IMG/VR virus record: IMGVR_UViG_3300014059_000011
Coordinates: 3,004 to 67,003 of that record
From: a virus
Lineage: Duplodnaviria; Caudoviricetes
Direction: 5' to 3' (one strand)
DNA length: 64,000 nt
The position numbers and the translations under genes are program-made. How positions within the stretch are numbered: position 1 is the stretch's first letter; each line of letters begins with the position of its first letter. Under the pieces are notes generated by a model. The model was not told where the DNA came from. It did no database searches and saw nothing but the letters and a program-made list of their open reading frames with translations. This document shows positions 1 to 59,642 of this stretch, in pieces.

Positions 1-558
1 ATTAAGCTTGGTCTGATCATCAAACTTCATGTTGAACATCTTACCGGCCGAATACATATACGTACCGATATCAACATGGGCAGGAGCATCATGCGAGAGA
101 AGAACATCAACCTTGCCACCATCAATAGCAAGCTTAACGTCATCCTCAGTGATCATCTCAGTAGGCCACCAACTCTTACCCTCAATCCTGCGATCCTTGT
201 CAACAGAATAAGCACCACCGACACTCAGAAAGCTGACACCATTCCAAGTCCATCGGTGCCCACGGGGCGAATAGAGAATGTTATCTCTTACGATAACAAA
301 CCCCTCATCGTCGGTATCGGTGTACCTCTCCCAAAGAAGAGGATGATTCTCATGATTTCCATCAAGGAAATAACAAGTCAACCCCTCATACCTAAGCATA
401 CGAGAAAGCTTATGAAGATACCTGTCATCCATATGCTCCCAATAACCAAAGTCACCAAGAACAAAGATTCTCTTAACAGGAACCTTGATGGCCTGACCGA
501 TAAGGTACTGCCAATGCATCAATTGTCCGTGCGTGTCACCAGCTAACATTAGCTTCAT
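1..558 (-). CDS. Calcineurin-like metallophosphoesterase (3' end runs off the window)
   Basis: Manually translated; not in the ORF track. MKLMLAGDTHG...LGDFG...FLDGNHENH...LSHDAP. Frame stays open to position 1. Confidence 0.85.
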   Translation of the reverse strand, partial: MKLMLAGDTHGQLMHWQYLIGQAIKVPVKRIFVLGDFGYWEHMDDRYLHKLSRMLRYEGLTCYFLDGNHENHPLLWERYTDTDDEGFVIVRDNILYSPRGHRWTWNGVSFLSVGGAYSVDKDRRIEGKSWWPTEMITEDDVKLAIDGGKVDVLLSHDAPAHVDIGTYMYSAGKMFNMKFDDQTKLN

Positions 559-581
559 GATTGCCTGTACCTTTCCTTTCT

Positions 582-794
582 CTAAATTACGATAAGCCTA
601 TCTGGCTTGACTGTCTTTGTTGCCTTTTGCCAGCCGTGCAATCTTTCATCATCAGGAAGAACCTGAGCTGTCTTTTGCGTTACACTAACAATAGTGCCAT
701 GTGTCAAATACGTGCCACCATTGCTGGTTCTCTTGTACATGAATACAACTCGGCAGCCAGGTTTGATTTCTTTCTGGTTGATGTCGTATAACAT
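582..794 (-). CDS. Hypothetical protein (small beta-barrel-like)
   Basis: 70-aa ORF co-oriented and closely packed with neighbours. Confidence 0.6.
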   Translation of the reverse strand: MLYDINQKEIKPGCRVVFMYKRTSNGGTYLTHGTIVSVTQKTAQVLPDDERLHGWQKATKTVKPDRLIVI

Positions 795-796
795 AA

Positions 797-958
797 TCAG
801 CCCGTAAAGTTTGGCTCCTGCACAATCACAGGAGTTGCCGGGATGGGATAATCCGGACCATATTGTGCATTTGCATCACTAGCTCTTGAGACAGTGATTA
901 AAAACAACCCTAGCGCAATCAATAGCGCTGCCAAAAGATACCTTGTACTTGTTCTCAT
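797..958 (-). CDS. Small secreted/membrane protein ending in ...EPNFTG
   Basis: Manual translation: MRTSTRYLLAALLIALGLFLITVSRASDANAQYGPDYPIPATPVIVQEPNFTG. Signal-peptide-like N-terminus, upstream AAGG. Confidence 0.55.
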   Translation of the reverse strand: MRTSTRYLLAALLIALGLFLITVSRASDANAQYGPDYPIPATPVIVQEPNFTG

Positions 959-981
959 AACCTTACCTTTCTTTTATCAAG

Positions 982-1018
982 TGCCCGCCCTGGGATTCGA
1001 ACCCAAACTGTAGGGATT
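982..1018 (-). pseudogene. 3' half of a split tRNA-Leu(UAA)
   Basis: AATCCCT ACAGT TTGGG TTCGAAT CCCAG GGCGGGC A = anticodon 3' strand, T-arm and acceptor 3' strand. Begins directly after the CCA of the intact tRNA-Leu. Confidence 0.75.
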
Positions 1019-1100
1019 TGGTGCGGGCGACAGGAGTCGAACCTGCATGCCGAAGCAAATGGGCTTAAACCATTCGTGTCTACCGTTTCACCACGCCCGC
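1019..1100 (-). tRNA. trnL: tRNA-Leu(TAA), long variable arm, CCA encoded
   Basis: GCGGGCG/CGCCCGC acceptor; AATGG-TTTAAGC-CCATT anticodon arm; TGC-TTCG-GCA variable arm; GGTTCGACTCC T-loop; ACCA end. Confidence 0.95.
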
Positions 1101-1568
1101 TCGATTTATATTTTTTCCTCTATATGTTTCTGTTTGTGCATGACAGTTAGGACATAAAAGACATAAGTTGTCAATCCTATTATCATTGTTTATTCCGTTG
1201 ATATGCTCTAATTCAAGAGCTATATCTTGTCCATTCCAAGTTGTTAACTTGCATTTTGAGCAACGCTTCTCAAAAATTTCATGCTTTAATAGCAAGTTTT
1301 TTAACTTGTAACTGCCTATTTTGCTTCCGTTAGTAAGCCACTCATCAAGCGAACGCCCCCTTTTTCCTTGTGGATAAGTTTTATTTTTGCTCCATCCTTG
1401 ACCAAGGAAATGATCAGTGTCTAGGCCGCAATCAATTATTGCTTGCTTAATTGTTTTGTAGTTTCCACCTGCCGGAACAAGATTCAACTTCCTCAACACT
1501 TGAGCTATTGACTGCGACCCAGACACTGCTTCTTCTAAATCACTTTCTGTCCATCGTTTTTTAGTCAT
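1080..1568 (-). CDS. HNH homing endonuclease
   Basis: CSKC...LELEHINGINNDNRIDNLCLLCPNCHA. Stop codon lies inside the 5' end of the tRNA-Leu. Leaderless -10 TATACT at 1575-1580. Confidence 0.9.
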   Translation of the reverse strand: MTKKRWTESDLEEAVSGSQSIAQVLRKLNLVPAGGNYKTIKQAIIDCGLDTDHFLGQGWSKNKTYPQGKRGRSLDEWLTNGSKIGSYKLKNLLLKHEIFEKRCSKCKLTTWNGQDIALELEHINGINNDNRIDNLCLLCPNCHAQTETYRGKNINRAGVVKR

Positions 1569-1590
1569 AACAATAGTATACCAGAAAGCG

Positions 1591-1631
1591 TTTTAAAAGT
1601 CCCCTCTCTCTACCAATTGGAGTACACGGGC
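1591..1631 (-). pseudogene. 5' half of a split tRNA-Leu(UAA)
   Basis: GCCCGTG TA CTCCAATTGGTAGAGAG A GGGGA CT TT TAAAA = acceptor 5' strand, D-arm and anticodon 5' strand, then non-tRNA sequence. Confidence 0.75.
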
Positions 1632-1663
1632 AATCCTTCTAGTCTATCAGACTATAGAACCAA

Positions 1664-1915
1664 TCAATTGTCCTTTAGAACCTCTAGCAGATCAAGATAC
1701 AATCTGTTTGATGTCTCGTAACTCTTAGAGAATTTAATAATCTCATCCCTAAATGGATGAATACTTGCCGTCTTTCCCAAGTCATTCATGCTGGCGATGG
1801 TTCTACCATAAAGATTGTATGGACCATACGCAGCCATCAAAAGGAGAATCATCTCTTCTCGATTAAGAGTAACGGTATACTCAATTTCCCTACTTGTCTT
1901 ATCAATTAGTCTCAT
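1664..1915 (-). CDS. Hypothetical protein
   Basis: 83-aa ORF in a packed minus-strand run. Confidence 0.65.
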   Translation of the reverse strand: MRLIDKTSREIEYTVTLNREEMILLLMAAYGPYNLYGRTIASMNDLGKTASIHPFRDEIIKFSKSYETSNRLYLDLLEVLKDN

Positions 1916-1918
1916 TAC

Positions 1919-2206
1919 TTAACCTCTCAACTCTGAAACATTAACACCATTAACAATGGTGTATCCAGCATCCTCAACAACATCAAGAATTTCGTCGGGA
2001 ATCTCATCCTCATTCATGAAGTTGACAACCTCAATCTCAAACGAGACAGTGAATCTCGGAGGTGAGACATAACCGTTCTGAACGAGGAACCTTTCAACAT
2101 CTTCCTCATCGAAATCAGGATAGGCACGAAGCTCACTGATAAACTTATTCTTAACCTCCCTAACACGCTTGACTAGAGCTACCTTGTGATCGTATTCGCT
2201 AATCAT
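1919..2206 (-). CDS. Hypothetical protein
   Basis: Start reassigned to MISEYDHK after AGGAG; acidic phage-type ORF. Confidence 0.65.
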   Translation of the reverse strand: MISEYDHKVALVKRVREVKNKFISELRAYPDFDEEDVERFLVQNGYVSPPRFTVSFEIEVVNFMNEDEIPDEILDVVEDAGYTIVNGVNVSELRG

Positions 2207-2207
2207 T

Positions 2208-2423
2208 TCATCTCCTAAAAGTAGTTTCTCTATGATGCTTCTTGTCATGCTCATCGTGCCATCTGTTCCAGAAATATCCAAACGGCTTTGCCAGAGCAAG
2301 ACCAATAACAATATCTGTCGTCAACTCAAACAACCAGTGTGCGGGGTCTTTGAGAAGAGAGATATACTCACTAATCCAAGGTCCGCCTTCACTTGCAATT
2401 ACATGAATCATCCGTACACCCAT
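2208..2423 (-). CDS. Hypothetical protein with a hydrophobic segment
   Basis: LLKDPAHWLFEL plus one hydrophobic stretch and a His-rich tail. Confidence 0.55.
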   Translation of the reverse strand: MGVRMIHVIASEGGPWISEYISLLKDPAHWLFELTTDIVIGLALAKPFGYFWNRWHDEHDKKHHRETTFRR

Positions 2424-2785
2424 TCTCCAAAGACAGCAAACTGAATCATACCGTCAGCATCATCAGCATCATAATCACCGGTGTCAGGATCAAAATACTT
2501 TGCGGGAGTCGTACCCCTGAGATTGCAGAACATCTTGATACCGTTAAGAAGACCGGGGAGCGTTAGGGCAACCCTGTTACCATCCTCGGCCTCTTCAAGA
2601 AGAAGGATACCGTTATTAGGAATCACATCATATGTAGAAGCAATAGGATCACAATCACCATAATCCTCAACGGAAGCTGCACTACACCAATAGTTGATAC
2701 CTCCCTCAAAAGCGGTGATGATAAGATCACGGATATTCTCATCCGTAAGCTGGAACTTATAGGTCAATTCAATTTCATGAGTCAT
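2408..2785 (-). CDS. Hypothetical phage protein
   Basis: 125 aa, AFEGGINYW...DADDADGMIQFAVFGEWVYG pattern. Confidence 0.7.
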   Translation of the reverse strand: MTHEIELTYKFQLTDENIRDLIITAFEGGINYWCSAASVEDYGDCDPIASTYDVIPNNGILLLEEAEDGNRVALTLPGLLNGIKMFCNLRGTTPAKYFDPDTGDYDADDADGMIQFAVFGEWVYG

Positions 2786-2969
2786 CAGATCAACCCCGCA
2801 TATTCGAACTTAGTAAGATATTCAATCATCTTTTTAGCTGTCTCCTTATTGTCTTTAATTAAACCCATTGCACGATTGCATGAGCCACAGAGCAGTCCCC
2901 GAATGCACATTCCGCAGGATTTTCTTCCAGAACAGCAAGCGTGGTCATGATCAACATGAAGATCATATG
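2785..2969 (-). pseudogene. 5'-truncated endonuclease VII remnant
   Basis: Manual translation: LHVDHDHACCSGRKSCGMCIRGLLCGSCNRAMGLIKDN...*. No in-frame start before an upstream TGA. Confidence 0.8.
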
Positions 2970-3230
2970 TTAAATCATATTGAGGTATTCGAAATCTTCG
3001 ATCATTGCAGCAGCACCATCAATGTCATCGCCAAGCATATCGTAGAGAGCGTTAAGCTTCATACCACGATCAGCATCAATAACATTGTTGCAGGACCAAC
3101 CGAGTGCAGCACAACCATTCTTGCGGAAAGCTGCACTTACCTCGTCAAACGTCTTGTTCTGCTCATCTGCAACGTCATGAAACTCATAAACGTCTACTCC
3201 TTCGTTGCACTTTTTACAGTAGATATCCAT
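2970..3230 (-). CDS. Small CxxC protein (N-terminus encoded within the EndoVII 3' end)
   Basis: MDIYCKKCNEGVDVYEFHD...; overlaps the EndoVII gene by 37 nt. Confidence 0.75.
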   Translation of the reverse strand: MDIYCKKCNEGVDVYEFHDVADEQNKTFDEVSAAFRKNGCAALGWSCNNVIDADRGMKLNALYDMLGDDIDGAAAMIEDFEYLNMI

Positions 3231-3664
3231 TGAATCGCTCTTTCCAGTAGGTGAATATCATCATTTAAATGACCGATTGCAACATTGCAATTGTGGCATA
3301 ATAGCCCACGCACTACGCCAGTTGAATGATCATGATCAACAAACGCTTCTCGTTTGGTTTTTCCGTTAATTTCAGTGTTGAGCTTTTTGTCACAAATGCC
3401 ACAACAAGAATTTTGTCTTGCAACAATTTTCTCATAATCATCTTCAGATAGACCATAAGTCCTTTTCATATGAGAAAACGCCACTGAGCGTCTTACTTTT
3501 TCTCTACGCTCAGGTCTAGCTTCATATCTTGCTTTTTCATATAAGCCCTTGCATGGCTTACATATGTAATATGGGCGATACCCAACCTTGTCTCCCCAAG
3601 TTTTTTTGATCCTTGGAAAATCATCTATAGGTTTTTCAATTTCACAATGAGCACATTTCTTCAT
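3194..3664 (-). CDS. Endonuclease VII-family (homing-type) endonuclease
   Basis: N-terminal CxxC/CxxC; CGIC...VDHDHSTGVVRGLLCHNCNVAIG. Leaderless TG-a-TACAAT at 3671-3676. Confidence 0.9.
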   Translation of the reverse strand: MKKCAHCEIEKPIDDFPRIKKTWGDKVGYRPYYICKPCKGLYEKARYEARPERREKVRRSVAFSHMKRTYGLSEDDYEKIVARQNSCCGICDKKLNTEINGKTKREAFVDHDHSTGVVRGLLCHNCNVAIGHLNDDIHLLERAIQWISTVKSATKE

Positions 3665-3687
3665 GTGCTCATTGTATCATGAAAATC

Positions 3688-3747
3688 TTAACTTAGCAAG
3701 GCTCTTTCATCAACAGGTTCGTTACACTTGCTACAGTATACGTCCAT
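3688..3747 (-). pseudogene. Orphaned original N-terminus of the CxxC gene (MDVYCSKCNEPVDERALLS*)
   Basis: GGGAG RBS plus ATG; 10 of the first 13 residues are identical to the start of 2970..3230. Confidence 0.75.
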
Positions 3748-3757
3748 AATGAACTCC

Positions 3758-4255
3758 CTAAACTAGTGGCTCAAGGCCGGGATCGGTTACACGAATAACA
3801 AACAGACCAAGCGATTCCCACATCTTGATTACTTGCTCCCTGTCATCAACAACAAAGCTTACATCAAATGGTCCGTTGATGTTATTGATATGAGCATCAT
3901 AAAGCTCTCGCTTTACAACATCATCAGCCCGATAATCACCACTCTGTCGCATCAGAAGAGAAAATGAAATTGGGGTCTTTGGATTGTCATCCATGAAGGG
4001 ATCAATCACATGATCAAAAAGCCAGTCAGTAGTTTCCTTCCTGAAATCATTTGATCTGCCAGAAGTGAAGAAAACGACATGATCCTCCATCCAGGCATTC
4101 CATACGATATCTCTAACCCCCGGAACAACACGATCATAGACCATGTTGAAGTTAAAATTCTTCCAATCCTTCTTCTTGCCGGTTACAAAATGACGTCGAT
4201 GCTCACAAGAAGTGAGCGTTCCATCAAGATCAACAATGATTGCTCTAGGATTCAT
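3758..4255 (-). CDS. HAD phosphatase, PseT/Pnkp 3'-phosphatase-like (stand-alone domain)
   Basis: IVDLDGTL, FTSGR, VVDDR..V..MW motifs. Confidence 0.85.
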   Translation of the reverse strand: MNPRAIIVDLDGTLTSCEHRRHFVTGKKKDWKNFNFNMVYDRVVPGVRDIVWNAWMEDHVVFFTSGRSNDFRKETTDWLFDHVIDPFMDDNPKTPISFSLLMRQSGDYRADDVVKRELYDAHINNINGPFDVSFVVDDREQVIKMWESLGLFVIRVTDPGLEPLV

Positions 4256-4460
4256 TCTCTTCCTTCTCTAGAATTGGATAGTTGTCAATAACAGTCTTCC
4301 ATTGTTCAAGAACACGACCCCACTCATCAAGAAGCCTCTTCTTCTTAAAGAGCCTCCACCACGGAGCAACTTCAAACTTTCGCCTTGCTACAATGGCTTC
4401 TCTCTCTGCTGCATCCATACTAGCAATCCATCGCTTCACTTTAATCTCGTTAATGGTCAT
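4245..4460 (-). CDS. Hypothetical protein
   Basis: 71-aa ORF overlapping both neighbours. Confidence 0.6.
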   Translation of the reverse strand: MTINEIKVKRWIASMDAAEREAIVARRKFEVAPWWRLFKKKRLLDEWGRVLEQWKTVIDNYPILEKEENES

Positions 4461-5178
4461 CTTTCACTCCCTCTGTAGTAGGCTTAAGCCACATATCCCT
4501 GAAAATAGCAACCACCATCTTAGGTGAGCAGTAATGATTCAGATACCACAAAGTATATGCAGTATCAGAAGCAAAGCACTTTTCCATTTCAACCCTGCGA
4601 CGATCAACAGAAAGCTCGCCCATCTTCTCAACAAAATGATCATCAGTCATTGTTGCGATAATCTCAGGATCAATGAAAAAGCCCTTGGTGATAGAAAATC
4701 GAATAGCCCTCAGAATTCTCAGAGTGTCCTCATTGAATCTATCCTCAGCATTACCGACGGTACGCAAGATATTTCTTGCAAGATCATCCCTTCCGCCAAA
4801 AAGATCAATAACTTCATCAATTGATCCACCGGCAGGGATAGCCATTGCATTCACCGTAAAGTCACGGCGAGAAAGATCATCAAAAAGAGAACCGGGAGTC
4901 ACATCTTCTGGTCTACGACCATCAACGTACTCACCATCCTTTCGGCACATAACGAAATCCGTGGCCATCTTTTTGATTCCGGTAATCTCACCAGTGATAT
5001 CAAGAGCACGAATTGTAAGATACTCAGGAGTCTCTACGAAAATCTTACCACCACGCTCAACGATGGCATCACGCATCTCATCGAAAGAATCACACTCAAC
5101 TGCGTAATCGTAATCCTTGACCGGAAGACCAAGAAGCATGTCACGAACAGCCCCACCAACAAGATAAAAGTTAGCCAT
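4450..5178 (-). CDS. tRNA nucleotidyltransferase (CCA-adding)/poly(A) polymerase family
   Basis: YLVGGAVRD, KDYDY, DLSRRDFTVNAMA, EDTLRILRAIRF. Confidence 0.92.
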   Translation of the reverse strand: MANFYLVGGAVRDMLLGLPVKDYDYAVECDSFDEMRDAIVERGGKIFVETPEYLTIRALDITGEITGIKKMATDFVMCRKDGEYVDGRRPEDVTPGSLFDDLSRRDFTVNAMAIPAGGSIDEVIDLFGGRDDLARNILRTVGNAEDRFNEDTLRILRAIRFSITKGFFIDPEIIATMTDDHFVEKMGELSVDRRRVEMEKCFASDTAYTLWYLNHYCSPKMVVAIFRDMWLKPTTEGVKDDH

Positions 5179-5398
5179 TCTTCAATACCCTCAACATTTC
5201 CTGCGTAGTATTTCTGTGACAATAAATGATAATGCCACCATCGTCTTCGCTCACAATTCCAACAAGTTCATCATTGATGGCCCACTTCAAAAGATCAAAA
5301 ATGTTATCACCATCAAGCTCAAGCTCCCAAAAATTATCTTCTTCGTCAGCCATTTGTGCTCCTAACAACAATACAGGTATACGGATCGGGATCATCAA
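5171..5398 (-). CDS. Hypothetical protein
   Basis: Acidic 75-aa ORF, coupled overlaps; start uncertain. Confidence 0.55.
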   Translation of the reverse strand: MMIPIRIPVLLLGAQMADEEDNFWELELDGDNIFDLLKWAINDELVGIVSEDDGGIIIYCHRNTTQEMLRVLKNG

Positions 5399-5666
5399 AA
5401 GCAGTCATAGCCTCAAAGAGAACACAATCAGCATTCTCAGGGCCATCGGCATTTAGATCAATAACAATCGGGGTGTCGTCGGAATAGTTCGAAAGAAATT
5501 CAATTACTTCACCGACACGAAGAGTCATCTTTACATTTCCATGAGGATCAGGAATCCTGATAAAAGAGTCACCATGTCGCTCAACAGAATAGAAACCATG
5601 AATCTGATCAAATGGATAACGATCATCCTTGCGAGGAATCCAAGCACTCTCGTCAATGTCTAGCAT
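5346..5666 (-). CDS. Hypothetical protein
   Basis: 106-aa acidic ORF. Confidence 0.6.
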   Translation of the reverse strand: MLDIDESAWIPRKDDRYPFDQIHGFYSVERHGDSFIRIPDPHGNVKMTLRVGEVIEFLSNYSDDTPIVIDLNADGPENADCVLFEAMTAFDDPDPYTCIVVRSTNG

Positions 5667-5697
5667 TGTTATCTCTTTCTGGTTGTCTTATATTAAG

Positions 5698-5767
5698 CCC
5701 CCTACCGAGGAGTCGAACCTCGCACTTCAACGTTAGAAGCGTCGAATGGGCATCCGGCCCGTAGGGG
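5698..5767 (-). tRNA. trnR: tRNA-Arg(TCT), short D-arm, no encoded CCA
   Basis: CCCCTAC/GTAGGGG acceptor; CGACG-CTTCTAA-CGTTG; CGAGG-TTCGACT-CCTCG. Confidence 0.85.
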
Positions 5768-5780
5768 AAAACTATATTTG

Positions 5781-5852
5781 TGACGCATAGGAGAATCGAA
5801 CTCCTATCTAAAGCTTGAGAAGCTCTTGTGTTAACCGTTACACCAATGCGCC
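5781..5852 (-). tRNA. trnE: tRNA-Glu(CTC), no encoded CCA
   Basis: GGCGCAT/ATGCGTC; AGAGC-TTCTCAA-GCTTT; AGGAG-TTCGATT-CTCCT. Confidence 0.92.
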
Positions 5853-6066
5853 GAAACCACCCCCCGAAATATTGTATCCAAGTCTTTCTTTCAGGGATGC
5901 CAGGTTGACAAATGTCATTTCATTGGACCCGGCTTGTATTCGATTTTTATTGCTTAGAAAGCTTTACGATGGCCCTTTTCAAAGCTTCACGCTCAGCCAA
6001 TGATCTAAAGAAATAGATTGGGTCTTTTCTTTCTTCCCATTCAATTATGCTACGACGGCAAGTTAT

Positions 6067-6140
6067 TGGCAGGGCATACGGGTTTCGATCCCGTGACTTG
6101 AGGGTGAAAACCTCAGATGTTCCCATTACACCAATGCCCC
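6067..6140 (-). tRNA. trnE: tRNA-Glu(TTC), CCA encoded
   Basis: GGGGCAT/ATGCCCT; TGAGG-TTTTCAC-CCTCA; ACGGG-ATCGAAA-CCCGT; GCCA end. Confidence 0.92.
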
Positions 6141-6208
6141 TTGATTGCTTACTTGCTACTTTTGTTTCCAAAAGTCTCTGTTTGCGGCCTTGTACTTCAA
6201 TTATATCA

Positions 6209-6391
6209 TCAGTCGGCGGGAGTCACACCATTACGCATGTCCTTCTGCCTCTGATATTCAACACCCTGCCAAAACCAGTTGCCCAACCCCCAAGGAATAT
6301 GAGGAATCGGAGGATCATATTCTGTATGGCCCCATCTCTGCCCGCAAATCTCATTACCATCTTTATCAAATTCATATGCACAAATTGCCAT
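6209..6391 (-). CDS. Hypothetical protein
   Basis: Start reassigned to MAICAYEF after GGAGAG. Confidence 0.55.
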   Translation of the reverse strand: MAICAYEFDKDGNEICGQRWGHTEYDPPIPHIPWGLGNWFWQGVEYQRQKDMRNGVTPAD

Positions 6392-6392
6392 C

Positions 6393-6695
6393 TTACTCTC
6401 CAATCTCCCAAATCCAATCCCTAGCAGACTCAAAAGTGGCAAACTCACCCAAATGAGTGCCATCGGCGGTGCGAATGTCAACCTCATCATCATACATTAG
6501 GACAGCTTCACGAACAGTAAAGCGCTTCGGAAGGTTAGTATCACCACAATCATAATCGGCGGTAATGAAATACCTTCCGTTGTAGACCTCATCGAACACC
6601 TCAGTTCCAAAGAAGATCATTTCATCTTCTCCGAACCAAGTGTTGCCTTCACGCTCACACTGTTCTTTGATTTCATCAATAGAATTGAACCACAT
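6393..6695 (-). CDS. Hypothetical phage protein
   Basis: MWFNSIDEIK...WF....M.FF...YFIT pattern typical of small phage proteins. Confidence 0.7.
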   Translation of the reverse strand: MWFNSIDEIKEQCEREGNTWFGEDEMIFFGTEVFDEVYNGRYFITADYDCGDTNLPKRFTVREAVLMYDDEVDIRTADGTHLGEFATFESARDWIWEIGE

Positions 6696-19832: not shown

Positions 19833-22800
19833 CTATGTTTTGCTTGAAAACAAAGGCATGGGGGCGTGCGGAATGCTTTTCAATTTGCAGTATCTCTCAG
19901 GGGAGATTGCCTTGTTGAGGGCTGTTCCGCCTCCCTTTGCTTCATTTACCTGTAGAATGACCCACTGAAATTGGTTGCTCAGTGTGTCCTTCGTGAAATT
20001 GTATGTTCCAGGGAAGATAACTGTCTTGAAGAACCCCTCGACAGGATTCCAGAAGTATGCATTCGCCATATCTTGCCCCTTCTTGGTCTTGAACACTGTG
20101 ACGCTCAGCAGATACGCAATTGTCTTGTCAGACTCTAGATCGTAGCCTGTGTCGGCGTCGAACAGGAACCTATATTGATCGTTAATTCTGCCCGCCTTGA
20201 ATGCATCCATGAAGCGGACAAACTTAGGACGAGAAACTTCTGCCTTGTCATATTCAATCGCATAATGCAAAGCTGAGTCACCTACCAGAGCAAGAATTGA
20301 ATCACGCTTGCTGAAGTTCATATTTTGATCAGCAAAGACAGAAACGAATCCTGTATCATCCTCAATATCAACACGATAGTACCTATCGGTACGCTTCGTT
20401 TCCTTAACGACCCCTCGCACAACAAACAACTCTGAACTGTCACCAGCATCAAGCACGTCCTGACATGTTGAAAGAATATCGTCAAAAACTGACGGCCCAT
20501 TGAGAAAGACAGGATAGTTCAATACTGGACCATAATAGCTCTTGGTATCATAGTCTGTTTCATGTCCAACTGACTCAAATGCGCCAATCTTCTCAAGGTT
20601 CTCAACAACGTTGGACTTCACTCTTGTCTTAGAGCAGGTATTAACGAACTGCTCGTATGACTGGAATGGGCGCTTATCAATGATTTCCTGCACTGCGTTC
20701 GGACCACAACCCATCACATTGCCAAGACCGAATCTAATCGTATTGCCTGACAGCGTAAATGTCTGCTCTGAAAGGTTTACGTCAGGAGGAAGAATGTCTA
20801 CCCCCAGCTTTTGTGCCTCAAAGAGGTATGTTGTGATATTCGAAGTGTTTGACTCATTTGTCAAAAGTGCCCAAATGTATTCAGTTGGATAATGGAACTT
20901 GAGCCACGCTGTCTGATATGTCAGAAGAGAATAAGCAACAGAATGAGACTTGTTAAACATGTAGTCACAAGCCTTCAGAATGTCTGCCCACAGATCGTCA
21001 GCATCTTTCTGAGAAAGATTCTTGGTCGCCCCCTCCATAAAGGAATCCTTGTAAGGATCGAACTCAGAAGCATCAAGCTTCTTTGAGATGATCTTTCTGA
21101 ATCTATCTGCCTTGCCCCATGAGAAGCCAGCTAGCTCCACAAGTGTTCTCATCAGTTGCTCTTCGAATACCCATGTTCCATATGTGTCACCAAGAATAGG
21201 CTCTAGAATTGGAGAAACATATGTAACCTTCGCTCCCTGCTTTCTTGCCTTATACTTAGCTCCCTGAGTTTCCCATGAGCCAGGGCGAATAAGTCCGTTA
21301 GCAACGATAAGGTCATTGAAAGTCTCAGCCTTAAGGTCCTTCAGGACATTCGTATATGCGATACCCTCTGACTGGAAGACTCCGACAGTGTTACCAGCGC
21401 TCAACTGCTGCATGACCATAGGGTCAATGTTTTCATCGTCAAGAGACTGAGACTCAACATCAAGCCCGTGATTCTTCTTGATCATTTCGAGAGTGTCCTT
21501 GATGACAGACACAGTGTTCAGACCAAGAGCATCGAACTTCACAAGACCCATCTGCTCAATCTCGTTCTTGTCAAAGGCTGTTACCTCAATGCGAGAGTTT
21601 GACTCTGGATCATTACGAGACTCAATTGGAAGAATCTCATGCAGAGGACGAGGGGAGATAACAACACCAGCAGCGTGAGCACCAGCCTGTTGAATCGTTC
21701 CCTTGATTCCATCAGCAACAACAAGAGCATCGCTGTAGTTTTGAATGAAATCCTTGGCTACCTTGTCTGTCATCTTGAAGATGGAATCCATATCCTTCAT
21801 TTTTGAAGAAATGGCATTGGCATCCTTATATGGCACACCGAAGATTCTTGCTGCACTCTTGAAGGCAGACTTTTCTTTGAAGTATCCATACGTTGAAATA
21901 GAGGCAACATTCTCAGTACCCCACCTATCACGAACGTACTGCTTAATCTCGTCACGACGACGATCCTCAAAGTCGATATCAATATCTGGATAGTCGTTAC
22001 GCTCAGGATTAAGGAACCGCCAGAACAGAAGATTGTACTTTACAGGATCAACCTTCGTAATACCAAGACAATAAGCGAGAAGCGAGCCTCCGCTTGATCC
22101 ACGGCCAGGACCCATAGCAATCCCGTTGTTCTTGGCCCACTTGCAGATATCCCATAGAATAAGGAAGTAGTCAGCAAACTTCTTGTCAATGATGATATCA
22201 AGCTCCATTTGGAGCACTTCACGATACTTCTCATTGTCAAGCCCCATCTCTGAAAGCCTGAAGTATGCAATGTCTGACAGATATTCCTCGGCAGACATTG
22301 ATACGCCAACAGACTTGGGATACGACGGAAGAAGAGCAATGCCCTTCTTCAGCGTTGCAGAACAGCGTTCCGCAATCTCCATACTGTTCTCAAGAAGCTG
22401 TGGGTCAGTTGATACGTTCTCAGTGAAGTAAGTCTCTACTTCATTCGTAGGCATCACATACAAAGGAAGATGCTGGAACGTCAGACGACGCTCAGGCCAT
22501 AGAACGTTAAGTCTATCGATAACGTCCTTCTCTGTCTTGGCTTCCTCAAGATGATCCTTTGCGTAGTCCATCATCTTCGGGGAGAAACTATTTGAAATGC
22601 CGATAGCAAGCAGAGCCTCTTCAACCCCACGATCAGACTTACGAGGATAGTGACAATCAATAGTTCCCACCATTGGCACGCCACGATACTCTGAATACTC
22701 GATCAGCTTCTTGTTCACCTTCTGCTGATCAGGCTCGGTCCATGGCTGAAGCTCAAGATAGAAATCCTTGCCATAGATTTTCAAGAACTCATCTAGCAAT

Positions 22801-23267
22801 TCATCAGCGTGCTCTAGATCATCATTGATGATAGCCTGAGAGATTGAACCACCCATACACCCCGAAAGAGCGATAATACCATCACTGTGCGCTCTAAGAA
22901 GCGCAAAGTCTGTTCTTGGCTTATGATAGAATCCGTCCGTCCAGGCAGCACGATTGATCTTGAAAAGATTCTGCATCCCCTCATCGTTTTCGGCAAGAAG
23001 AATCAGATGGAATCGCTCAGCCTTAGAATCACCATCGTTTTTGATATCAGGCACAAAATACGACTCAAGCCCAAAAACGGGCTTAACGTCGGTCTTGCTT
23101 GCTGCCTCTTGGAATCTGTAATATCCAGCCAGGCTTCCATGATCAGTTATGCTAATTGCCTTTTGTTCGTTTTCCTCTGCCACCTCAATAAGCTGTTCTG
23201 GTCTAGACAGCCCATCCAGCAAGCTATATTCAGAATGGGTGTGGAGATGTACAAAATCAGCCATCAT
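19833..23267 (-). CDS. dnaE: DNA polymerase III alpha subunit
   Basis: HLHTHSEYSLLDG PHP domain, GPGRGSSGGS, PDIDIDF, FNKSHS; no intein-sized insertion. Confidence 0.96.
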   Translation of the reverse strand: MMADFVHLHTHSEYSLLDGLSRPEQLIEVAEENEQKAISITDHGSLAGYYRFQEAASKTDVKPVFGLESYFVPDIKNDGDSKAERFHLILLAENDEGMQNLFKINRAAWTDGFYHKPRTDFALLRAHSDGIIALSGCMGGSISQAIINDDLEHADELLDEFLKIYGKDFYLELQPWTEPDQQKVNKKLIEYSEYRGVPMVGTIDCHYPRKSDRGVEEALLAIGISNSFSPKMMDYAKDHLEEAKTEKDVIDRLNVLWPERRLTFQHLPLYVMPTNEVETYFTENVSTDPQLLENSMEIAERCSATLKKGIALLPSYPKSVGVSMSAEEYLSDIAYFRLSEMGLDNEKYREVLQMELDIIIDKKFADYFLILWDICKWAKNNGIAMGPGRGSSGGSLLAYCLGITKVDPVKYNLLFWRFLNPERNDYPDIDIDFEDRRRDEIKQYVRDRWGTENVASISTYGYFKEKSAFKSAARIFGVPYKDANAISSKMKDMDSIFKMTDKVAKDFIQNYSDALVVADGIKGTIQQAGAHAAGVVISPRPLHEILPIESRNDPESNSRIEVTAFDKNEIEQMGLVKFDALGLNTVSVIKDTLEMIKKNHGLDVESQSLDDENIDPMVMQQLSAGNTVGVFQSEGIAYTNVLKDLKAETFNDLIVANGLIRPGSWETQGAKYKARKQGAKVTYVSPILEPILGDTYGTWVFEEQLMRTLVELAGFSWGKADRFRKIISKKLDASEFDPYKDSFMEGATKNLSQKDADDLWADILKACDYMFNKSHSVAYSLLTYQTAWLKFHYPTEYIWALLTNESNTSNITTYLFEAQKLGVDILPPDVNLSEQTFTLSGNTIRFGLGNVMGCGPNAVQEIIDKRPFQSYEQFVNTCSKTRVKSNVVENLEKIGAFESVGHETDYDTKSYYGPVLNYPVFLNGPSVFDDILSTCQDVLDAGDSSELFVVRGVVKETKRTDRYYRVDIEDDTGFVSVFADQNMNFSKRDSILALVGDSALHYAIEYDKAEVSRPKFVRFMDAFKAGRINDQYRFLFDADTGYDLESDKTIAYLLSVTVFKTKKGQDMANAYFWNPVEGFFKTVIFPGTYNFTKDTLSNQFQWVILQVNEAKGGGTALNKAISPERYCKLKSIPHAPMPLFSSKT

Positions 23268-23314: not shown

Positions 23315-23416
23315 TCATTTCTTGAAGTAATATCTCAAGCCGTCTTTTGTTGATTTGTCCTTTCCAAAATAAGACAAATCTAACTCAATTCTACATCTAG
23401 AGCAAACTTTTGTCAT
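23315..23416 (-). pseudogene. N-terminal zinc-ribbon remnant of a homing endonuclease
   Basis: Manual translation: MTKVCSRCRIELDLSYFGKDKSTKDGLRYYFKK*; AT-rich. Confidence 0.6.
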
Positions 23417-59397: not shown

Positions 59398-59642
59398 CAG
59401 TCCTTATCTTTCATTATCTGCTCTCCCGTAAACCAAGAGAAAACCTTTACTCCATTTTTTGCAAACTTTTCTGCGACATCTTGAGATATCGTCAGATAGA
59501 TTTGTCTGCTACAAAAACCACATAAAGTAATGGCATTGTAGTCATCACCATCAAAAAAGATTGACATTTGATCGGGTCGCGATATGATCGACGGTCCACA
59601 ATCTTCACATCGGACCTTGCCGATGCGCTGAGTTTTGTTCAT
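59397..59642 (-). CDS. Small CxxC protein
   Basis: CEDCG...CGFC; leaderless TATGCT-6 nt-ATG. Confidence 0.65.
   Translation of the reverse strand: MNKTQRIGKVRCEDCGPSIISRPDQMSIFFDGDDYNAITLCGFCSRQIYLTISQDVAEKFAKNGVKVFSWFTGEQIMKDKD

Follow-up and report, generated by a model that had tools for sequence, protein, structure and literature searches.

Free-standing homing endonuclease genes of phages are usually described in intergenic positions or under the protection of an intron or intein, and a design in which such a gene carries along a spare end for the gene that it interrupts is rarely described in phages. The design is already known from fungal mitochondria, where the so-called mORFs make gene hybrids: with atp6 in Allomyces macrogynus, and with atp6, atp9, cox2 and nad3 in Glomus (PMC3630166). 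The nuclease family that concerns us here is known as well. Fang et al. tied a C-terminal position of the Endo VII motif to homing and restriction endonucleases rather than to resolvases, and named the group the DHHRN family (PMC6083498). Here we analyze p86, a gene of 86 amino acids (aa) with a CxxC motif at 2970-3230 (minus strand) in a window of 64,000 nucleotides (nt) of viral DNA, which is itself part of a 67-kb IMG/VR virus record with an estimated completeness of 61%. An earlier note on this DNA had placed an Endo VII nuclease gene within the 5' end of the CxxC gene and proposed that the nuclease gene carries the working start; both direct reading and a PF02945 match support this. A second insertion, at the 3' end, was absent from its account. 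Judging from the sequence, p86 has probably been invaded by two independent free-standing genes of the homing endonuclease type (Endo VII/DHHRN), each of which brought a patch for the gene end that it displaced.

In the region around p86 every gene lies on the minus strand, as read directly from the window. Between p86 and a 19-codon open reading frame (ORF) with a GGGAG ribosome site (3688-3747, second in transcription order) lies a full nuclease gene, EndoVII-1 (3194-3664, 156 aa). On the other side p86 is followed by the last 61 codons of another nuclease gene, the EndoVII-2 remnant (2785-2970), and directly after this by p125 (2408-2785), a gene of 125 aa. What supports a double insertion directly is this anatomy, the family membership of both nucleases and the independent presence or absence of each insertion among relatives (at the protein level). 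Neither insertion would make use of an intron or intein.

EndoVII-1 matches PF02945 at residues 65-147 of its 156 (E = 2e-22) and phrog_2633 over its full length (E = 7e-34). When aligned with residues 7-70 of T4 Endo VII, both Cys pairs, the DHDH motif, the Arg and CX2C-Asn are all present, and the catalytic and zinc residues coincide with invariant columns in the family alignment. The protein also aligns with Hpy99I, through the last conserved positions of the domain. Its N-terminal 40 residues form a CxxC...CxxC zinc ribbon that is common to P0062 (an intact nuclease of a related contig, described below) and other relatives. The Endo VII motif is thus C-terminal, behind a zinc ribbon, as in the endonuclease clade. 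By this domain layout, rather than by a tree, EndoVII-1 would belong to the endonuclease and not to the resolvase clade.

The last 37 nt of EndoVII-1 (3194-3230) are dual-coding: its last 12 codons carry, in another frame, the start codon and codons 1-13 of p86. The TGG codon of W146 gives the TG of the p86 start codon and the codon of I147 completes the invariant Asp2 of p86. Both residues are the last conserved positions of the nuclease domain and stand in its last conserved helix. Among 153 family members the residue aligned to W146 is Tyr in 148 (97%) and Trp in two, and the residue aligned to I147 is Leu in 126 and Ile in 12. Since a Trp-Ile look-alike of the usual Tyr-Leu supplies the start, the p86 start is written into the nuclease fold. 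The other ten nuclease codons in the overlap belong to the variable tail of the family, and EndoVII-1 has its stop codon only by virtue of which Val and Asp codons p86 uses there; with the corresponding codons of the upstream copy there would be no stop. A clean deletion of EndoVII-1 would take away the ribosome-site region of p86 together with its start. The bases just 5' of the inner ATG look like a copy of the native ribosome site, a reading that we rejected: because they encode conserved nuclease residues, they are probably derived from the nuclease gene.

Upstream of EndoVII-1 the 19-codon ORF repeats codons 1-13 of p86, with 10 of 13 residues and 28 of 39 nt identical. That a GGGAG and an ATG lead here into a short frame with a stop, that the two N-termini share ten residues and that the end of the nuclease gene encodes the second of them in another frame had all been reported before, and each of these readings was confirmed. 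A tblastn search of the whole window with P0002, the p86 protein of a relative, finds the upstream fragment with an E-value of 3e-5 and 12 out of 12 residues identical after the start. Past a 15-nt insert the similarity to p86 resumes in frame and continues to approximately codon 26, where it ends at the start codon of EndoVII-1. The local score of this extended similarity is 24, against 12.4 +/- 2.1 in shuffles; it is reached by one of 2000 shuffles and by 7 of the 1776 windows of the 64 kb, self matches included. The fragment is collinear with p86 and provided with a ribosome site. Chance likeness of the two N-termini is ruled out by the P0002 match and the shuffle test.

Given the homology up to about codon 26, the scar is longer than 13 codons and extends over approximately 3658-3762 (minus strand); the insertion was therefore probably not after codon 13 or so, as originally suggested. 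We denote this displaced native 5' end of p86 as N*. It contains the GGGAG, the ATG at 3747, 13 intact codons, the 15-nt insert with an in-frame stop and the decayed codons 14-26. The GGGAG itself (3754-3758) is overlapped by the stop codon (3758-3760) of the first gene in transcription order, a PNKP-type phosphatase (Pfam PF25109; 3758-4255). An 8-nt match between the 15-nt insert and the 3' end of EndoVII-1 was set aside as likely due to chance. In our reading the 19-codon ORF would probably be a dead remnant of the old ribosome site and the first 26 or so codons.

At the 3' end of p86 the EndoVII-2 remnant matches PF02945 positions 40-81 (E = 3e-13). Its residues are identical in 58 of 61 cases to residues 114-174 of the intact 174-aa P0062, which has the same architecture as EndoVII-1 but is only 27% identical to it. 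The window thus holds the end of a different nuclease. Codons 1 to about 113 are missing, such that the zinc ribbon and the first Cys pair are deleted and no usable start is left; the deletion starts right after the p86 stop codon, and DHDH, R and CX2C-N are retained. The frame of the remnant continues for seven codons past the nuclease domain and stops at a TGATG overlap with the p125 start, and p125 is in this way coupled to the stop codon native to p86. In P0031, the p86 allele of a 114-kb relative, the same seven codons form the C-terminus and follow the p86 body without a break; in the window p86 ends instead in four different codons and a stop. The last seven codons and stop at 2785-2808 (minus strand) are accordingly designated C*, the displaced native 3' end. 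A 9-nt direct repeat that covers p86 codons F80-E81-Y82 (2985-2993, second copy at 2800-2808, both minus strand) brackets the insertion. We also considered that the new p86 tail was made by a deletion inside EndoVII-2, and rejected this, as P0002 has the same tail beside an intact EndoVII-2. The order at the 3' site is core, inserted end, nuclease and native end in phase with the nuclease, and the 5' site is its mirror image. Gene-hybrid order of the mORF type is found at both sites: the native 3' end equals the end of P0031 and N* corresponds to P0002.

Proteins of relatives, which were assigned to contigs through protein clusters, indicate three states of the locus. On a 1,895-bp NCBI contig the 5' site appears empty and the 3' site holds an intact EndoVII-2 (P0062), together with P0002 as the p86 allele and P0049 as the p125 homolog. 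The window has EndoVII-1 and the upstream scar at the 5' site, the decayed remnant at the 3' site, P0001 as its p86 allele, and p125. On a 114,247-bp JGI contig the 5' site is occupied by EndoVII-1 (P0035, one change in 156 residues) and the 3' site appears empty, with P0031 as the p86 allele and none of the other markers seen. The N-terminus of P0002 is of the upstream-fragment type and is continuous with the p86 body, and P0031 has an uninterrupted native C-terminus. The earlier note expected orthologs without the nuclease to read from the upstream-type N-terminus straight into the body; P0002 does so, although it is seen as a protein only. Given the intact EndoVII-2 on the P0002 contig, and EndoVII-1 with a native 3' end on the 114-kb contig, the two insertions appear to vary independently. 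As a side observation, the PNKP-type phosphatase of the 114-kb relative (P0046) is called as 37 aa: approximately the first 33 residues match, after which the sequence diverges to a stop, suggesting that this gene is broken or interrupted there, possibly by another insertion.

In the search for relatives of EndoVII-1 a cluster at 99-100% identity is followed by proteins of at most 45% identity, none of them from the 1,895-bp NCBI contig. Searches of GenBank phages with blastn and tblastn gave distant Endo VII matches only, or nothing; IMG/VR scans with EndoVII-1, PNKP and p125 gave only relatives of at most 41% identity over the whole match; and metagenome and GTDB scans with an alignment of P0001 and P0002 gave no match.

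The distribution of differences along p86 suggests how the 5' insertion may have spread. Four p86 alleles linked to EndoVII-1 are identical at residues 1-19, whereas over the 63 positions of residues 20-82 they show 5 to 12 differences. P0002 stands at no greater distance over the body (9 to 13 differences out of 63), but its N-terminus differs at 4 of 19 positions and by an indel, and the scar in the window carries the P0002 states at all three diagnostic positions. Identity between the window and the 114-kb phage amounts to 99.4% for EndoVII-1, 86% for p86, 93.8% for the CCA-adding enzyme and 99.2% for a 129-aa protein. A nuclease and patch that move as a unit between diverged backgrounds would give such a pattern. 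Yet with an N-terminal block that is conserved anyway and a genome identity that is mosaic, the pattern falls short of proof.

Several observations weigh against the double insertion of homing endonuclease genes. The N-terminal block of p86 is so strongly conserved that the lack of differences at 19 positions in four alleles is weak evidence for co-transfer, and with another protein of 129 aa also at 99% identity the value for EndoVII-1 is not exceptional by itself. The three states are read from proteins and contig assignment instead of from aligned loci, and the empty sites are deduced from these; a copy of EndoVII-1 cut by the end of the 1,895-bp contig would escape notice. The promoter of EndoVII-1, described below, is a consensus match only. 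Furthermore, all three genomes keep at least one intact Endo VII gene, as would also be expected of a needed housekeeping nuclease.

This last point favors the strongest alternative, according to which the locus is a passive scar of illegitimate recombination between diverged phages, the Endo VII genes being ordinary, needed nucleases (resolvase- or packaging-associated) and their position at p86 incidental. Also in its favor, the 67-kb record, which is 61% complete, has no more than two PF02945 matches and shows no other resolvase. The C-terminal motif behind a zinc ribbon, on the other hand, marks the endonuclease and not the resolvase clade (PMC6083498). An incidental position would furthermore have to account for two different members of one family, 27% identical, at the two ends of a single 86-codon gene, one of them decaying, for a third decayed copy at 23315-23416, and for an HNH/tRNA cassette of the same design 2 kb away. 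Finally, a hairpin and proximal promoter as predicted for EndoVII-1 are typical of homing endonuclease genes (PMC2988022). Taken together we regard a passive scar as rather unlikely.

The expression signals referred to are located around the start of EndoVII-1. A promoter-like site at 3671-3699 (minus strand) consists of TTGCTA (3694-3699), a 17-nt spacer and a TG-extended TACAAT (3671-3676). Between the end of the -10 element and the ATG at 3664 there are 6 nt, a distance that suggests a transcript of EndoVII-1 without a leader. In addition, the RNA is predicted to fold into a 14-bp hairpin (3643-3676, minus strand; arms 3663-3676 and 3643-3656, loop 3657-3662) of -21.6 kcal/mol, with a z-score of -5.6 for the region. 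This hairpin buries the start codon of EndoVII-1, and its 5' arm includes the -10 element; according to the folding it cannot form in an RNA that starts at 3664. A hairpin on the read-through RNA, in combination with a proximal promoter whose RNA is without the 5' arm, is described for I-TevI, I-TevII, I-TevIII, segB and Aeh1 mobE (PMC2988022). By consensus matches and folding, the signals of EndoVII-1 would match this T4 homing endonuclease scheme. A TG-extended -10 that ends 5 to 7 nt before an ATG is also seen elsewhere in the window, at 59642 (-), 59709 (+), 56064 (-), 53019 (-), 32710 (-) and 8321 (-), where 59642 and 59709 form a divergent pair. This suggests that leaderless transcripts are common in the phage from which the window derives.

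Within the scar, the -35 falls in the 15-nt insert, and the decayed part contains both the -10 and the hairpin arm. With these elements inside the scar, the displaced gene end may have been reused. It might even be argued that the 19-codon ORF is a working part of the cassette, either as a translated leader that opens the hairpin or as a retained nuclease-binding site that gives autorepression, as for I-TevI, where the operator overlaps the promoter and is similar to the homing site (PMC2988022). The ribosome site, ATG and 13 codons are indeed intact, with a protein equal to that of P0002, whereas the sequence that follows has decayed, and the -35, -10 and hairpin arm are all inside the scar. 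However, 13 codons are too few to show selection and the insertion may be recent, and the ORF stops 23 nt before the EndoVII-1 start, which is not the classic distance for coupling. We consider such a role quite improbable; it would possibly add to the explanation by double insertion. A self-splicing intron (or bypass), by which the upstream start and the body of p86 would be joined and the inner start would be redundant, is close to refuted and for practical purposes excluded. Group I introns of phage DNA polymerase genes do encode several nucleases with the Endo VII motif (PMC6083498). But an Rfam scan of 500-6500 at E <= 1 gave only tRNAs and a sub-threshold hairpin match, with neither a group I nor a group II intron, and of the approximately 517 inserted nt the nuclease ORF takes up 471, too many for a ribozyme core to fit in as well. 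The upstream copy is moreover interrupted by a stop and by indels, and the inner start, which four alleles have in identical form, is embedded in the conserved helix of the nuclease.

Under the insertion of two homing endonuclease genes, the history of the locus could be as follows. A phage whose p86 had diverged would have donated a nuclease that recognizes the conserved 5' region of this gene, and the recipient would have been a P0002-like genome. During repair one junction would have been homologous, in the p86 body, and the other illegitimate, so that the recipient kept its own 5' end as a duplicate. Repair of this kind has been demonstrated in experiments on T4 intron homing with homology on one side (cited in PMC2988022), and the same review documents one-sided illegitimate repair of double-strand breaks at microhomologies. 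As a result, p86 would now start at the ATG that EndoVII-1 carries out of frame near its own 3' end, and take its first codons from there as well. On the other side of the gene, p86 would be closed by four new codons and a stop ahead of EndoVII-2, with its former last seven codons serving as the nuclease tail. In a mixed infection each nuclease would cleave uninterrupted alleles close to the site of its own insertion; with the occupied genome as repair template, nuclease and patch would then be copied together. Later spread of EndoVII-1 could proceed by ordinary homing, with the scar and the phosphatase gene as left homology arm and the p86 body as right arm. EndoVII-1 would be expressed from the close promoter as a leaderless RNA while the hairpin silences read-through RNA. 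EndoVII-2 would represent a later stage of the cycle, decayed by a deletion that spared the p86 stop codon.

In the occupied allele a putative target over codons 10-16 or so would be broken in the scar by the 15-nt insert and altered in the inner copy, which differs at 5 of 9 nt in codons 11-13. The earlier note explained the synonymous differences between the two N-termini as a recoding that confers resistance to cleavage, a suggestion that is pure inference, although such a target would be compatible with it. Such differences are expected if the inner copy comes from a diverged allele (72% nt identity), which explains them equally well.

More tentatively, the locus may represent a general phage route, free of introns and inteins, in which nuclease cassettes invade coding and tRNA genes and carry a patch for the broken gene end. 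In this broader and rather doubtful proposal the minimal cassette would end exactly at the last conserved helix of the nuclease; the 5' form (Tyr to Trp) would act as an addiction device, where loss of the nuclease costs the host gene its start; the displaced native end would be reused as nuclease promoter, hairpin arm and possibly operator; and the cases would comprise three within 3 kb (tRNA-Leu/HNH, p86 5' and p86 3') and one in an unrelated viral contig.

The last of these cases comes from a survey of 77 other viral loci with the same nuclease family, against which the 5' duplication in the window stood out (z = 6.1). One of the surveyed loci, L093 (IMGVR_UViG_3300032893_000180), clearly shows the 3' type: there a gene of 77 aa (1258-1491) lies next to an Endo VII-type nuclease gene of 171 aa (1495-2010), and both finish in the same 9-10 residues and stop, encoded on an 18-nt repeat with 16 of 18 positions identical (1474-1491 and 1993-2010). 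The contig is viral and unrelated to the window, and the 77-aa gene sits there downstream of a large open-ended ORF. With one clear case in 77, the design apparently recurs but is uncommon in the nuclease family.

In the window itself, the HNH cassette at 982-1631 (minus strand) has the 5' half of a tRNA just upstream of the HNH start at 1568, an intact tRNA-Leu(UAA) at 1019-1100 that overlaps the 3' end of the HNH gene by 21 nt, and the tRNA 3' half directly after it. An extended -10 lies 6 nt before the ATG and a long hairpin covers the start codon, the same design as in EndoVII-1. The layout thus agrees with that of p86, and the analogy drawn earlier with this neighboring tRNA case holds. 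At 23315-23416 (minus strand) a 33-codon ORF is the truncated N-terminal zinc ribbon of a third family nuclease; it agrees with the start of P0062 at 13 of 26 residues. Its position is immediately upstream of the gene of a DnaE-like polymerase (19833-23267), and it too is probably what is left of a homing endonuclease gene.

The host gene itself encodes a small protein, whose N-terminus has a CxxC knuckle and whose C-terminus is acidic and helical. We found 30 homologs of 76-120 aa, all of which begin with the conserved N-terminal block; the most conserved parts are this CxxC block and the C-terminal acidic block. Both insertions directly adjoin these two blocks. Homing endonucleases usually recognize conserved sequence, and in this general respect the positions fit homing. 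No Pfam family matches p86 and the only PHROG match is faint and of unknown function; an AlphaFold model with a predicted local distance difference test (pLDDT) of 70 gave no PDB fold match. Among longer proteins no fusions of p86 with a nuclease were found, in a search that was weak. At 17 distant p86 loci on viral contigs there is no Endo VII gene, phosphatase or p125 within 4 kb. The p125 gene (phrog_2355, function unknown) served as a context marker that ties the contigs of relatives together, and its relatives are present in many large viral contigs of up to 365 kb. In the 114-kb relative it has diverged beyond 90% or is absent, which makes the stretch from p86 to p125 a local divergence hot spot.

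If the double insertion is correct, p86 exemplifies a third route for free-standing phage homing endonuclease genes, next to intergenic positions and protection by introns or inteins. It would be a concrete case of a jump to new sites by one homologous and one illegitimate junction, and of overlapping coding that locks a selfish gene to its host gene. For annotation it gives two warnings: short 'orphan' ORFs beside nuclease genes may be displaced gene ends, and the true start of a host gene may sit inside a nuclease gene. Both nucleases might prove to be new sequence-specific enzymes, and the duplicated ends allow a guess at the target of each.

Of the described systems, the fungal mORFs (PMC3630166) are aptly compared with p86, as the earlier note had done. 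In both an intron-less endonuclease ORF lies in coding sequence and a foreign gene end completes the host gene; a duplicate, the native end, persists on the far side of the nuclease and is in some cases in phase with its ORF; and the native copy matches a close relative while the inserted copy is diverged. The 3' insertion of EndoVII-2 and L093 have exactly the mORF order. The mORFs, however, reside in organelle genomes, code for LAGLIDADG or GIY-YIG nucleases and were described for 3' ends, whereas here we have phage DNA and Endo VII/DHHRN nucleases. Moreover, unlike in mORFs, the 5' case of p86 is mirrored: it supplies the ribosome site, start and first codons, which overlap, in another frame, the conserved C-terminal helix of the nuclease.

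With F-CphI and the DHHRN family (PMC6083498) the window nucleases have in common the C-terminal CxxC, DHDH, R and CxxC-N, the N-terminal DNA-binding part and the occurrence as free-standing phage genes. F-CphI lies beside an intron-containing psbA and cuts the intron-less allele, whereas the p86 nucleases lie inside a protein-coding gene with duplicated ends. Their sequence identity to characterized members is low.

The intron-less homing logic is also that of the T4-like seg and mob genes, including mobE of Aeromonas phage Aeh1, by which nrdA is split (PMC2988022, PMC3045599). There too, expression signals of the host gene embedded in the nuclease gene favor its retention, control is by a hairpin and a proximal promoter, insertion can hit a host gene and element sequence can join the host protein. 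The T4 genes, on the other hand, are mostly intergenic and of the GIY-YIG or HNH type, and Aeh1 mobE leaves a split two-subunit enzyme instead of an ORF restored by a patch; duplicated host gene ends are not described for seg and mob in these two papers. Split-intein fractured genes (PMC2677866) likewise have a nuclease gene in phage-like coding sequence from environmental DNA, with the host function rescued. Rescue there is by protein trans-splicing of the split intein, whereas p86 is without intein and would be rescued by a duplicated gene end. Compared with all of these, what appears to be new at p86 is its occurrence in a phage, the mirrored form at the 5' end, where the host start stands in the conserved helix of the nuclease, the double invasion of one small gene and, as far as the proteins of relatives indicate, the natural occurrence of empty, occupied and decayed states.

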